Positions 1 through 6,000 of a DNA stretch of 27,837 bases are shown piece by piece. The stretch's first letter is position 1. Every line of letters begins with the position of its first letter. The position numbers were made by a program. Source of the stretch: a virus (lineage: Duplodnaviria; Heunggongvirae; Uroviricota; Caudoviricetes); IMG/VR virus record IMGVR_UViG_2537561944_000027. One strand, given 5' to 3'.

Positions 1-3000
1 ATGAAGTATGTCTTTATTGAAAAACATCAGGCTGAGTTCAGCATCAAAGCAATGTGCCGCGTGCTCCGGGTGGCCCGCAGCGGCTGGTATACGTGGTGTC
101 AGCGGCGGACAAGGATAAGCACGCGTCAGCAGTTCCGCCAACACTGCGACAGCGTTGTCCTCGCGGCTTTTACCCGGTCAAAACAGCGTTACGGTGCCCC
201 ACGCCTGACGGATGAACTGCGTGCTCAGGGTTACCCCTTTAACGTAAAAACCGTGGCGGCAAGCCTGCGCCGTCAGGGACTGAGGGCAAAGGCCTCCCGG
301 AAGTTCAGCCCGGTCAGCTACCGCGCACACGGCCTGCCTGTGTCAGAAAATCTGTTGGAGCAGGATTTTTACGCCAGTGGCCCGAACCAGAAGTGGGCAG
401 GAGACATCACGTACTTACGTACAGATGAAGGCTGGCTGTATCTGGCAGTGGTCATTGACCTGTAGTCACGTGCCGTTATTGGCTGGTCAATGTCGCCACG
501 CATGACGGCGCAACTGGCCTGCGATGCCCTGCAGATGGCGCTGTGGCGGCGTAAGAGGCCCCGGAACGTTATCGTTCACACGGACCGTGGAGGCCAGTAC
601 TGTTCAGCAGATTATCAGGCGCAACTGAAGCGGCATAATCTGCGTGGAAGTATGAGCGCAAAAGGTTGCTGCTACGATAATGCCTGCGTGGAAAGCTTCT
701 TTCATTCGCTGAAAGTGGAATGTATCCATGGAGAACACTTTATCAGCCGGGAAATAATGCGGGCAACGGTGTTTAATTATATCGAATGTGATTACAATCG
801 GTGGCGGCGGCACAGTTGGTGTGGCGGCCTCAGTCCGGAACAATTTGAAAACAAGAACCTCGCTTAGGCCTGTGTCCATATTACGTGGGTAGGATCACGC
901 AGGGGTCGGCCCATTTGAGCTTCAGATAGGAACGTTTGAATTCCTTTCACAAAATACATCACATACTGAACGTGAACATTCCCACTTTGATCTTAAGGCC
1001 AAAAAGTATGCAGGACTAATGATTTTTAGGGATAGCTTGAGAGTATTACCTTATGGTCGAGTAGATAATGATTTCTTCCAGATAGAAGAAAGACGTTCAT
1101 GGAATGCAGGGCGATATTATTGGTCTAATAGAAGGATTTTTGGTTATATTGGAATTACTCAATCCAGTAATAAAGAGCTGAAAGATAAGTCGGGGAGAGA
1201 GGGATTCATAAGAAACCAGGCTGCAAGAGAACTGAAAACTATTATATCTAATTTGTTAACTGAACTTGCTGATAGATTTTTTGGTTCACGTTCTGATGAC
1301 CGTAAAGAGCTTTTAGAACAAGTTAAGCGTGAAAAAGAGTTAAGAAAATCTGCTCAACAACAAGCTCGAAAATCAACACAAAAAAGTTTTTCAGAAGCTT
1401 TGAAGAATCAGACACCAGTTCTTGATGCTTCCTTGGAGGCTGTTAAAAGGCTGAAAACTAAGCTTGATAAAACTGATGGTTCGTTAGATTTAAACTATCT
1501 TAAAATTATAGACAGTGATCTTACAAACTTAGATGCGTTGCGCAGTGAAATTAAAACGCCTATCAAACCTCCAAAACTTGGAATGTATGAAGAGAAATAT
1601 AGAGACTACAGAGATAAATTTAATGAGTTCTCTGCGTATATTCTACAAATGAAGTTAGCAATTAATAAACTTGATTCTGAATTAAATAAACTTGAGCCTT
1701 CATTGTCAGCGAAAAATCACCTTGAAAAAAATCAAGGTATTATTAATTCTAAACTAACTAAGTTTAATAACACGATAGAGGAGAAGATACATTCTCTTTT
1801 AAAAAAATGGGCCGATGAAATAAAGGTTGATCGAAGTGATTATTATGCTAAAACTATATCAGTTGTTGATTCAATAGATAATGATTCACAAATTGAAAAT
1901 GTGTTTAATTTGCTCGATAGTTTATATGTTGAGTCAGTTGATACCCTAACTTTCAAATATCAATCAATAATAAAAGGTCTCGATAGATTATTTGAAGGTA
2001 TAAACTTAGATTCAGCATTCTCATTATCTGAAGAAGAACGCTCATATTTTGAAGAAAAAGCTAAAAGTTTAAACGCGCTTGCACAGTTAGGTATTAGTGT
2101 TGAGATAATATCTCATGAACTTGAAGAAATGGATTCTATGGTAACCAGAGGACTAAACTCTCTTCCTACTTCTGTAAAAGAACACCCTGGTTTTTCATTG
2201 GCGTTAAATGCTCACAGATCGCTTACTCAACAAATACGTTTCTTATCACCTTTGAAAATATCAGGTTATCAATCCAGGCAGAGAATAACTGGAAAAAATA
2301 TCATGGATTATGTCCTGAAGTTCTTTGGGGAGCGTTTCGAACGGCAACGAATAACTATTGAATTTAGTGAAGAGTTTAAGCAAATCGCAATAACAGATAT
2401 ACCATTAAGGATCTATCCTGTTTTTACTAATATTATCAACAATGCAATGTATTGGGTCAGTCTGTCAAATAATAGGCTCATAAAGATTGGTTTTGTGAAT
2501 TCTTTGGTTATCATAGCAAATTCTGGTCCGGCAATTGATACCGATGATATCCCGCGACTATTTGAACTATTTTATAGCAAAAGAGCAAATGGACATGGGG
2601 TAGGTCTGTATCTATGTCGAGAAAACCTTGCTGTTGCACATCATAAAATATGGTATTCAGAACCTGATGAAGGCGATAACTATTTAATAAAAGATGGCGC
2701 TAATTTTGTGATCCAGTTCAATGGAGTGGAGTTCTAATATGACAGTGGCAAATTATAATTCTCTTGTCCAGAAAACTTTCTGCGAAAATGCAATTCGTTC
2801 CGTTGTCATGATTGATGACGATTTTCTGACGTATTCTGAATCAATCAGGGCGTTGAATAACGAAGTTGATTTAGACTACAACAAAATTGACTCATCTAAA
2901 CGAGCCGCTACTCTTGAGAGCTTTTTTCAATCTAAAAATATGATTTGTGATGTTGACAATGGTTCTGTTAATTTCGATGTGGATCGGATTAGAAAATCAG

Positions 3001-6000
3001 ATCTTATTATTGTAGATTATCATCTTGATAATAATGCACCTGATAAAACACTTAAACTATTACAAGATTTGAAAGACTCCGATCATTTAAATATGATTGT
3101 AATATATACTAGAGAGAATTTAGAAACGGTTTGGATGCAGATATCATCGACTCTCAAAGGTGCTCTGGATATCAACAGCTTGATCATTGACTACGATAAT
3201 GAAGATGTCCAAAGTTATTGGGAAGACGTTGTATTACCGAACTTAAATGATAATGGTAATAAAGCTCTCACAAGAGATGAAATAATAGCCTATATTAAAG
3301 ACAGTAAGCCTTGTAGAAGAATTAAAAGATTAATACATGATGATGCTGTGTTGGAGGATCAAAAGGATAAAAACTTCATTGCAAAAATGATTGCAGAATA
3401 TGCTGTGTCTAGAAATGCAATTATTTCTAGCAACACATCTGGCAATGTCATTCGGGGTGATGAAAGCGGAGTAAAATGGATTCAATGTGGTAATATCTTT
3501 GTCTCCCTATTTCATAAGGTTCAAGATGATCATGAAAACGATGGAGATAGGATTTGGCAAACTCTCAATGATTCTCTCATTGAATGGAAACCATCTTATT
3601 ATCAGTTAATAAAATCTGAAATTCAGAATGCAATCGAAGCTGAGGCTTTATCTTTTGTAAATCATTTGGCTAACGATCATTACGGTCAAGCTGCGTGGTT
3701 AAATGAGATATTAAAATCAGACTCGCCTGATATTAGATGTAGAAATATTGACTTTGTATTTGGTAATTTATCAGAAGAGCTTTATCAAAGACTTAAAAAT
3801 AATAATACGCTGGATGAATTTATCAAAAGTGTTTTTGATAGCTATTCAAATGAATACGCTAACAGCGGAGTTGCTGCATTGCTCCAATATTGCTCTTCAA
3901 AAATGGATCTGCCATCAAATAATGATACTTATCACGAAATGTATCATGCTTTAAATATGAATTTGTCTTCAAAGAATTTTGAAGATGGTCATATTTCTAC
4001 TGGCACTATTTTCTTTGATACAGAGTCGAACAAATGGTATTTATGTGTATCTGCGGCATGTGATTTGGTTCCTACTCAGGGTAACGACCCTCACCATGTA
4101 AGATTAAGTCCGCACAGGCTCATTAAAGTTCTGGAGCTTTTTAACGCCAGTCAGAGTAAAGCATTGCCATTTGCTGAACATTCGAAATATATATATGTAA
4201 TGCATAAAAATCAAAGAAAATATCTCTCTATTTTCGAAGGGGATAAAACGCTTCCTGTTGTTGATTATATGGTGGTGTTGAATCATGGAACAACAGTTGA
4301 TGGCGAAGAAAAAAATATTATTTCTGCCGTGTTTTTAAGTAATATGGATGGCAACGTGCAAAATGTTCCTGTCCGACTCAAACTTAAATCTCAACTGAGA
4401 ACTGGTTATGCAGAAAGATATCAGGCTATAGCGTCTCAGTATAGCTCAAGGATTGGTGTGGATTATGTATCAATGATGCTACCATAATTATTATATTTTA
4501 GGCGTGGTGATTTTTTTTCGCCATGCCTATTTTATATTTATCATCACAATGATGTTGTTTATTTTTGTTTAAGTCTTCTAAGCTTCATGCATTCTAATGA
4601 GAATAATAATAGAGTTGTGCTGTATATAAAGCCAGAGTTAGTTAATAACTTTAAATTTAATGCTTCAGGATTTTCACTGAGAAAGTGAAAGGCATAAACT
4701 AAGTATACAGCTAAAGTAGCCGTTCCAATTGTTGGTCCAATATCGCCTTGATCATGAGGTTCAAGGTTTACATTGAACTTGAAGATTAGCCATTCAAATC
4801 CCCAAGTAAAAAAACAACTAATATCATGGCTGCGAATAATTTCGCGATGTTATCTGCTGATGGATTCATCAGAACAGATTGTTTCTGAAAAAATTCACAA
4901 AGTGAGAGTCCGAAAAAAATAAAAAAAGTGGTCTGGAACTAAATTTTTCAAAAACTTTGAATAGGGTTTCCATTTTCTTTACCTTCAGGATTATATTAGC
5001 TATTCTGATACTTAGGCTACCAGAGCATTTGATCTTTGAGCTTGAACGTAATCACTCCACCATTGCATCAAACTCTGTCGCTCTATCAGATATTCTGCAC
5101 GATTGTATGCTGCGATAATTTCATCTTTTTTCGAGTGGGCAAGCGCTGCCTCAAGAACTTCAGCTCTGAATTTACCAGACTCCTCTGCCGCTGTTCGTGC
5201 AATAGAACGCATACCGTGAGCTACAAGCTCGCCTCCGAACCCCATTCGGATGATAGCTGCGTTGGCTGTTTGTTCATGCATATGATTAAGAGGCGCTTTT
5301 ATGCTGGGGAAAACCCATTCTCTATGCCCACTTATTGATTTCATTAATTCAAGGATGCGCAAAGCTTCTTTACTCAAAGGAACTTTGTGAAGCTTTTTCA
5401 TTTTCATGAAATCAGCAGGAATGTTCCAAATGCTGTTGGTTGTATCAATATCAGACCACCTTGCGCGAACGGCTTCACCCGGACGAACCCATGTCAACAA
5501 TTGCCATTCAATTAGCATACGTGTTTCCAACCGGATTGACGCATTCGTCAAAGATTCCATAAACCTTGGCAATTCGCTTGGGGGAAGGGCAGGCATATTT
5601 TGCTTTTTTGGTTTACTGAATCTTTGACCAAGGTTGTCAGCCGGGTTGAACTCAATAAGTTCTTCAGTAGCTGCCCACCGGAAGATTTCATTCAGACGTG
5701 AAATGATACGGCGTAGAGTTTCCAATACGCCTCGTTGCTCAATAGGATCAAGGTGTTGTTTTAAGAGCTTAGGTCGGATCTCATTGATAGGGACATTACC
5801 CAGACCGGGAAAGACATTTCTCTCTAAGCTGCGCCAGATGTCTGCTGCATGGTCTTGTGAGATACCTGATGTCTTTACCTTCTCATCTAACCATTTCCGC
5901 GCTACGGCTTGGAGAGTGTGCTCAGTAGCACTCTTTAATGCCTTCGCCTTATCGTTGTTATGGATTTGGGGATCAACACCATTTGCCAGAAAGGAGAGAT

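Follow-up and report, generated by a model that had tools for sequence, protein, structure and literature searches.

A compact, AT-rich block with two adjacent genes, the first resembling a histidine kinase and the second combining a receiver (REC) domain with a long C-terminal region, lies near the left end of the IMG/VR virus record IMGVR_UViG_2537561944_000027. The question raised by this block is whether its two genes form a complete defence system of their own. The original prediction, made from the sequence of the whole stretch of 27,837 nucleotides (hereafter called the window, to which all coordinates refer), regarded them as a candidate undescribed two-component defence system, perhaps a minimal variant of Detocs. 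The window is Escherichia coli chromosome of O26:H11 type, and the results of our analysis indicate that the gene-pair family is already known and that the window copy is a truncated member of it. We consider it probable that the locus represents the decayed end of an ssrA-integrated islet, namely what is left, in inactivated form, of a restriction-like system under methylation gating and phosphorelay control.

The truncation is seen at the upstream end of the pair. Gene 1 (898-2737, + strand) corresponds to the C-terminal 612 codons of a paraMORC-type GHKL-histidine-kinase-like protein of about 991 amino acids, on the basis of its homology with the closest intact relative (locus L003, 86-88% identical). 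The window protein aligns with the intact L003 protein without gaps and with 88% identity over residues 380-991 only, and it covers positions 370-975 of the 977 in a family profile of 36 sequences. At the DNA level, similarity to intact relatives begins exactly at the end of the adjoining IS3 element, around position 898, and is gone from the alignment upstream of this point. The IS3 end sets the truncation point by cutting gene 1 at codon ~380, inside a conserved region rather than at the edge of a domain that has a start of its own, and the kinase protein is without residues 1-379. The invariant GHKL motifs are in the missing part, as are half of the family's 114 invariant columns (57); the retained part keeps all 57 invariant and 30 near-invariant residues that belong to it. 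The frame of gene 1 is open from the stop codon at 890-892 and its first in-frame start codon is the ATG at 1019, from which a product of 572 amino acids is read (RefSeq WP_000577251.1, 'ATP-binding protein'). The 5' truncation suspected in the original prediction is thus real, and the gene start that had been placed at 925 has to be abandoned. The element responsible is the right part of an IS3 copy (1-897, + strand), recognised from its open reading frames (ORFs) and from the identical locus of O26:H11 strain 11368, which RefSeq labels 'IS3-like element IS3 family transposase; internal stop'. This copy is defective, because its orfB contains an internal stop at 466-468.

What remains of gene 1 is a recognisable kinase core, all on the + strand. 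Pfam identifies a HEF_HK (DHp-like) domain (PF19191) at 2084-2260 (amino acids 356-414, E = 1.2e-5, 26.1 bits versus a cutoff of 24.1) and a HATPase_c catalytic (CA) domain (PF02518) at 2402-2677 (amino acids 462-553, E = 1.9e-11, 44.8 bits versus a cutoff of 26.4). The H-box SHELEEM occupies 2111-2131, with the phospho-His codon at 2114-2116, and the HATPase_c boxes follow as the N box (2429-2455), the G1-like motif NSGPAI (2519-2536) and the G2 motif GHGVGL (2591-2608). The His-Glu pair of the H-box is invariant in 36 homologues (H785/E786 in L003 numbering). Gene 1 has no hydrophobic segment (maximum 19-residue Kyte-Doolittle value 1.38) and gene 2 likewise has no membrane segment. Among NCBIfam models, gene 1 gives weak generic sensor-kinase matches far below the cutoffs and gene 2 gives no match. 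These data bear out the kinase core, the lack of a membrane anchor and the phospho-acceptor positions that had been proposed, both the His of gene 1 and the Asp of gene 2 described below.

Gene 2 (2739-4487, + strand) encodes a REC-effector protein of 582 amino acids (RefSeq WP_000214985.1, 'response regulator receiver domain') and is separated by a single nucleotide from gene 1 (TAA at 2735-2737, ATG at 2739), to which it is translationally coupled, as originally noted at these coordinates. Its AlphaFold2 model has a pLDDT of 84.7 and a pTM of 0.77. The N-terminal part is a receiver domain of Response_reg_2 type with a helical insertion of ~80 amino acids (2793-3587, + strand), the Pfam model PF19192 matching amino acids 19-175 with E = 3.6e-31 and 109.1 bits against a cutoff of 27. 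Its key residues are the acidic pair D26-D27, the acceptor D93 (codon 3015-3017), T124 and K260; D93 is invariant in the family, and the window protein keeps all invariant residues. The rest of the protein is a C-terminal output module of ~300 amino acids (residues 286-582; 3594-4484, + strand), in which a helical bundle precedes a beta-rich domain and which contains the invariant motifs HALN (403-406), TGT (421-423), CVSAACD (436-442), QLRxGYxxR (552-560) and RIGVD (571-575).

In line with the original prediction, no DNA- or RNA-binding output domain, including those of OmpR, NarL, LytTR or NtrC type, was found in gene 2 by Pfam, PDB sequence-profile or fold searches. Pfam recognises nothing in this protein besides Response_reg_2, the isolated C-terminal module returns nothing recurrent in Pfam at E <= 10, and the PDB sequence-profile search with gene 2 yielded no meaningful match. 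The model of the isolated module (pLDDT 85.1) is without a strong structural neighbour: Foldseek found no match in the PDB at E <= 1e-3, and the likeness noted, to the MazF/CcdB-type fold, is weak and not significant (E = 0.37, probability 0.51). This possible similarity is a lead only. A hidden Markov model search of 1.84 billion cluster representatives recovered 642 proteins with the C-terminal module (clusters at 50% identity); among the top 150 matches no alternative architecture was present, the module always lying behind this REC domain in the same position. One cluster (P0009, 1,605 members labelled 'partial') contains a C-terminally shortened form of gene 2, of 453 amino acids ending ...TQGNDPHH; either contig breaks at an IS insertion or, in some E. 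coli lineages, a truncated allele could account for it.

Both protein families have been described before. HEF_HK as well as Response_reg_2 was defined by Bellieny-Rabelo, Pretorius and Moleleki (Genome Biol Evol 2021; PMC8011034), who reported that the two genes are linked in 91.6% (644 regions), that the kinase is soluble and that the REC protein is without a known output domain. The predominant 'group 1' architecture of the kinase, HATPase_c_3 + HEF_HK + HATPase_c, accounted for 174 of their 222 sequences and the 'group 2' architecture, without HATPase_c_3, for 34. They also found C5 methylases, Vsr and restriction-modification (R-M) genes significantly enriched nearby, with linked paraMORC ATPases and with E. 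coli among the examples (PMC8011034). The window pair belongs to the same families, since both Pfam models score above their gathering thresholds, and it matches the published pair in gene adjacency, soluble kinase, REC protein without known output and, in its relatives, the R-M, methylase and Vsr context; it differs in having neither the N-terminal HATPase_c_3 domain nor the upstream C5 methylase. Moreover, GenBank entry AJ304858.2, which covers phage CP-1639 and its integration site, already describes the stretch as a 'remnant integrative element' and records a 'histidin kinase-like protein' in it. The pair can thus no longer be called undescribed. As to catalogues of defence systems, PADLOC 2.0 returned only noise for both window proteins (E of at least 0.003) and, for the intact homologues, only generic MTase_II, DruM and DrmMII matches to the methylase plus a match of model PDLC03419 confined to the GHKL head. 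The locus is therefore absent from PADLOC 2.0 and is not a catalogued defence system.

The composition of the intact unit can be deduced from its relatives. The L003 locus (REC protein 86% identical) also lies at smpB-ssrA beside a P4-type integrase, and its operon comprises a C5 DNA methylase of 389 amino acids, a HATPase_c_3-HEF_HK-HATPase_c protein of 991 amino acids and a REC protein of 582 amino acids, the three genes overlapping or abutting. The same triad is common to Pantoea dispersa, locus L005 and E. coli SE15. The SE15 version (L006; NC_013654, 4542611-4548686), encoded by ECSF_RS22155-RS22150-RS26660, is intact, with the methylase, a GHKL-histidine kinase (HK) of 989 amino acids and a REC-effector of 607 amino acids; it is followed by an extra HNH_2 gene annotated as 'phosphorothioated DNA-binding restriction endonuclease' in a region resembling an integrative and conjugative element (ICE), with ArdC and MobH. 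Among 5426 complete E. coli genomes, 212 carry the divergent clade of SE15 type.

From species-representative genomes we retrieved 77 loci, 68 of which were analysed. In 63 of these 68 loci the gene directly upstream of REC encodes an HK-like protein of ~991 amino acids. A C5 methylase is found in 56 loci at a distance of up to two genes and in 63 at up to five; it usually heads the operon (41 loci) and in some cases lies downstream in convergent orientation. Vsr is the immediately downstream gene in 16 of the 68 loci. The other neighbours are of defence or mobile type (GmrSD, Mrr, AspBHI-type and HNH nucleases, Fic, TnsE, SIR2-HerA, relaxases and integrases), and a recognisable restriction nuclease is present in few operons, on a scan of two positions, the second gene upstream and the first gene downstream. 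The mobile setting originally noted is borne out, and the idea of a minimal two-gene module is not supported. The intact unit is a three-gene operon, and IS3 has cost the window copy its methylase together with residues 1-379 of the kinase protein.

The large protein of the intact operons joins a GHKL head to a kinase core. In the profile of its family, the first ~130 residues match the N-terminal domains of PMS2, MutL and Hsp90, in keeping with a GHKL head of MORC/paraMORC type, and the C-terminal third matches solved sensor kinases, for instance 3a0r at 2.3e-13. The N-terminal GHKL motifs E32/N36/D39, D61/G63/G65 and G104/G107/G109 are invariant in 36 homologues. The PADLOC model for type II restriction endonucleases (REase_II, PDLC03419) matches the GHKL head only, at amino acids 13-136 in L003 (1.6e-9) and with 5e-13 in SE15, which suggests that some catalogued type II restriction endonucleases share this ATPase module. 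The methylase of intact relatives is recognised by Pfam as C5 DNA_methylase (3.3e-61) and by PADLOC as MTase_II (8.5e-82).

In E. coli, copies of the truncated locus are always chromosomal. The 4.1-kb block recurs with at least 99% identity in 562 records, and the truncated locus is present in 586 of 5426 complete genomes (~11%). All 586 copies begin at the junction around 898 or later, including those of strains since without IS3. Changes at this end of the islet include the loss of IS3 in O111:H8 strain 1056-1 and the gain of IS600 beside IS3 in strain 00_3305. A tblastn search with the REC protein matched only two plasmids, and the two matching 'phage' records include the chromosomal integration site; plasmids and phages are therefore not the typical carriers of this protein.

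The flanks of the block agree with those originally proposed. A P4-type tyrosine integrase (5012-6289, - strand; Pfam Arm-DNA-bind_3, Phage_int_M and Phage_integrase) is followed by a copy of the ssrA 3'-end att core of 24 nucleotides (6413-6436, + strand; 0 matches expected by chance), which marks the islet boundary; no tmRNA gene was found within the window. The prophage-free order of the islet, smpB-ssrA-int-hyp-REC gene-truncated kinase gene-IS3-ygaQ'-glaH, is found in strain Ecol_AZ155, in which ssrA itself occupies the position of the window's att core and the P4-type integrase gene adjoins ssrA, as it does in L003. In the window strain a lambdoid prophage is inserted between ssrA and the islet, and this explains the orphan att core.

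How the intact system might have worked can be proposed from its parts. The islet would once have carried a C5 DNA methyltransferase, a soluble GHKL-HK protein of ~990 amino acids and the receiver protein of 582 amino acids, the second combining a MORC/MutL-type GHKL ATPase head, a long helical region and the HEF_HK + HATPase_c core. The tight operon of methylase, kinase and REC genes, the frequent Vsr, the scarcity of other restriction components, the MORC/MutL-type head and the non-DNA-binding output together suggest an R-M-like system that senses methylation. In such a system the methylase would mark host DNA, and the GHKL head might act as an ATP-driven DNA clamp or sensor reporting unmethylated, foreign DNA. 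The H-box His would then be autophosphorylated and transfer its phosphate to Asp93 of the receiver, and this phosphorylation would free the C-terminal effector, whose activity is possibly toxin-like, with the result that the invader is restricted or the cell arrested. A putative defence role for the intact family is a reasonable proposition. In E. coli, an IS3-associated deletion would have removed the methylase gene together with codons 1-379 of the kinase; given that losing the methylase alone should be dangerous, the joint loss of methylase and sensor head fits a survivable one-step event. The remnant is a promoter-less, sensor-less kinase fragment with an intact effector gene, most likely silent or inert because its native promoter and sensor are gone, and vertically inherited. 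A promoter scan scored no better than shuffled sequence and was uninformative. There is a small chance that the remnant has residual activity, given the perfect conservation of its key residues.

Several observations weigh against the relic interpretation. A plausible Shine-Dalgarno sequence (AGGA) precedes ATG 1019, every invariant residue of the retained parts is present, and both ORFs are intact, with 99.7-100% conservation, in ~560 E. coli genomes; this could reflect residual function rather than recent decay. In addition, some operons contain an extra HNH or Mrr-type nuclease, so that the REC protein need not kill, and searches of the accessible literature found no experimental study of any family member and no paper citing the 2021 description. 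The undamaged state of the retained parts suggests that the truncation may be recent or that the remainder may still be under constraint. In line with the original prediction, the two genes as they stand could be a functional minimal module for defence or abortive infection, in which the N-terminally shortened kinase would still autophosphorylate and control the REC-effector without a methylase. Such a module would agree with the retention of all invariant DHp, CA, REC and output residues, with the preservation of the translational coupling and of a terminator-like hairpin at the operon end (4499-4529, + strand; 12-bp stem and T run, directly 3' of gene 2), and with the published 'group 2' kinases that have no HATPase_c_3. 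We nevertheless find it unlikely. Only 5 of the 63 HK-like genes are without the N-terminus, and these comprise two at contig ends, one split by a frameshift, one with an insertion in it and one that has no methylase close by; all five look like breakage and therefore the two-gene form is not a natural minimal variant. The position of the cut, at an IS end inside a conserved region, points the same way, as does the loss of the native promoter and upstream genes. Furthermore, the E. coli copies are so alike that recency alone predicts their intactness, and decay is ongoing in some strains by IS600 insertion and truncation of the integrase.

Two other explanations concern the intact triad rather than the fragment. 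The describers of the family speculated on a regulatory role (PMC8011034), according to which the two-component system would only modulate the adjacent methylase or R-M genes, in their expression or in their activity, and the REC protein would serve as a regulator rather than an effector. The genuine HK/REC phosphorelay architecture and the consistent methylase linkage would suit this proposal, which seems improbable to us in view of the lack of a DNA- or RNA-binding output domain in the searches reported above, the lack of another restriction component to regulate in most operons (adjacent genes scanned) and the N-terminal MORC/MutL-type GHKL head, which is characteristic of DNA-manipulating R-M proteins. 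Alternatively, the triad may be mainly a selfish addiction module that keeps the mobile element in place by post-segregational killing, with the methylase as antidote, the phosphorelay-effector as poison and anti-phage activity as an incidental effect. Its occurrence in integrative islets and ICE-like regions with adjoining relaxases and integrases would be understandable on these terms, as would the combined loss of methylase and sensor head in E. coli and the weak MazF/CcdB-type similarity of the output module. However, no antitoxin-like small gene accompanies the triad, the fold similarity is weak, and on present data the proposal is indistinguishable from the defence model, R-M systems doing both; we give it a slim chance. 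The relic interpretation thus remains the one that we prefer. A more novel reading, which we regard as possible but doubtful, is that the parent family constitutes a new immune class, namely R-M with a signalling 'R' arm, in which a MORC-like GHKL-kinase clamp would sense missing 5-methylcytosine and phosphorylate a receiver with a MazF/CcdB-like toxin or restriction effector; as a bolder corollary, the pair carried by ~11% of E. coli might still be active, either constitutively buffered or otherwise triggered.

Among known systems, Detocs consists of the DtcA kinase, the DtcB REC buffer and the DtcC REC-PNP effector (Rousset et al., bioRxiv 10.1101/2023.01.24.525353). The likeness to Detocs that had been proposed is justified for the logic, since in both cases a His-Asp phosphorelay would control a receiver-fused, non-DNA-binding effector on mobile or defence islands, and putative counterparts of the Detocs phospho-His and phospho-Asp are present in the window and invariant in the family (the H-box His and D93). 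It does not extend to membership. There is no REC-only buffer ORF in 898-5011 on either strand and no PNP/ATP-nucleosidase domain or other known cell-killing effector in the window pair; the Detocs sensor has TPR repeats, whereas that of the intact relatives has a GHKL ATPase head; Detocs, unlike the intact system, has no C5 DNA methylase coupled to it; and the REC and DHp domains belong to other Pfam families, with no PADLOC match for the window pair.

MORC/paraMORC-type GHKL heads were placed in R-M operons by Iyer, Abhiman and Aravind (2008; PMC2292703). The intact relatives share with these proteins, including the paraMORC3/Shedu type I-D protein VcSduA (PMC12137116), an N-terminal GHKL head of HATPase_c_3 type in which the ATP-binding motifs are invariant, and their operons also contain cytosine methylases, Vsr and sometimes HNH nucleases. 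They differ in that the head is fused to a histidine-kinase core, not to a nuclease or TIR domain, and would signal to a separate REC protein; the window copy has lost this head completely. As individual candidates, VcSduA was set aside as a GHKL-Shedu protein with only the GHKL theme in common, and V. cholerae WonAB, an OLD-ABC ATPase with a PD-(D/E)xK nuclease, as unrelated. Type II R-M systems of the Dcm-Vsr kind resemble the intact relatives in their C5 DNA_methylase and frequent Vsr, but the kinase/REC pair stands in place of the R gene and neither the window nor the intact triads contain a recognised restriction endonuclease domain; the window itself, with IS3 upstream and the integrase downstream, contains neither methylase nor Vsr. 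With regard to toxins of the MazF/Kid/CcdB fold, the output module has no sequence similarity to them, and its conserved His, two Cys, Asp and several Arg do not obviously match the catalytic Arg/Thr of MazF.

The base composition of the block sets it apart from the rest of the window, as originally perceived by eye. The computed GC content of 898-5011 is 33.9%, versus 54.8% in the IS3 part, 45.2% in the integrase gene and 49.2% from 6290 to the end (49% for the rest of the window), and windows of equal size elsewhere on the stretch range from 0.458 to 0.542, none being below 45.8%. Between the terminator-like hairpin and the integrase lies a small conserved hypothetical gene of the islet (4559-4973, - strand), identified by RefSeq comparison (138 amino acids in relatives, WP_000448925.1); an equivalent small minus-strand ORF is found 3' of the REC gene in loci L005, L008, L009 and L010. 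Compared with the otherwise identical O26:H11 11368 sequence, the window copy is disrupted by two 1-bp deletions in A-runs, at ~4808 and ~4920, which may be homopolymer sequencing errors or real decay.

The prophage part of the window contains additional features. A gene for a DUF4760 membrane protein (6546-7487, - strand; Pfam 8.2e-16) is located between the ssrA att core and the integrase of the lambdoid prophage (7937-9139, - strand) and may be a prophage moron or an accessory gene. Matches to isrK and C4 antisense RNA (Rfam, 67 and 83.6 bits) are present at 18020-18208; these RNAs are typical of an ant/immunity region. The late region at 24783-27428 carries tRNA-Met/Arg/Arg, then the small RNAs STnc100 and AgvB (anti-GcvB), then a NanS-p-like ORF of 622 amino acids. 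In Stx phages this is the site of stxAB; the window has no stx genes at this site.

With this analysis, the two-gene block, for which RefSeq offers no more than the labels 'ATP-binding protein' and 'response regulator receiver domain' across hundreds of enterohaemorrhagic and B1 E. coli genomes, is probably explained as an IS3-truncated relic. The intact triad is widespread, its output module occurring in the 642 clusters mentioned above and a divergent intact version in 212 of 5426 E. coli genomes. If the proposed mechanism is true, the triad would join epigenetic self-marking to a His-Asp phosphorelay, a combination unseen in characterised defence systems. The main interest thus shifts from the window fragment, which is part of a broken system, to the role of the intact triad.

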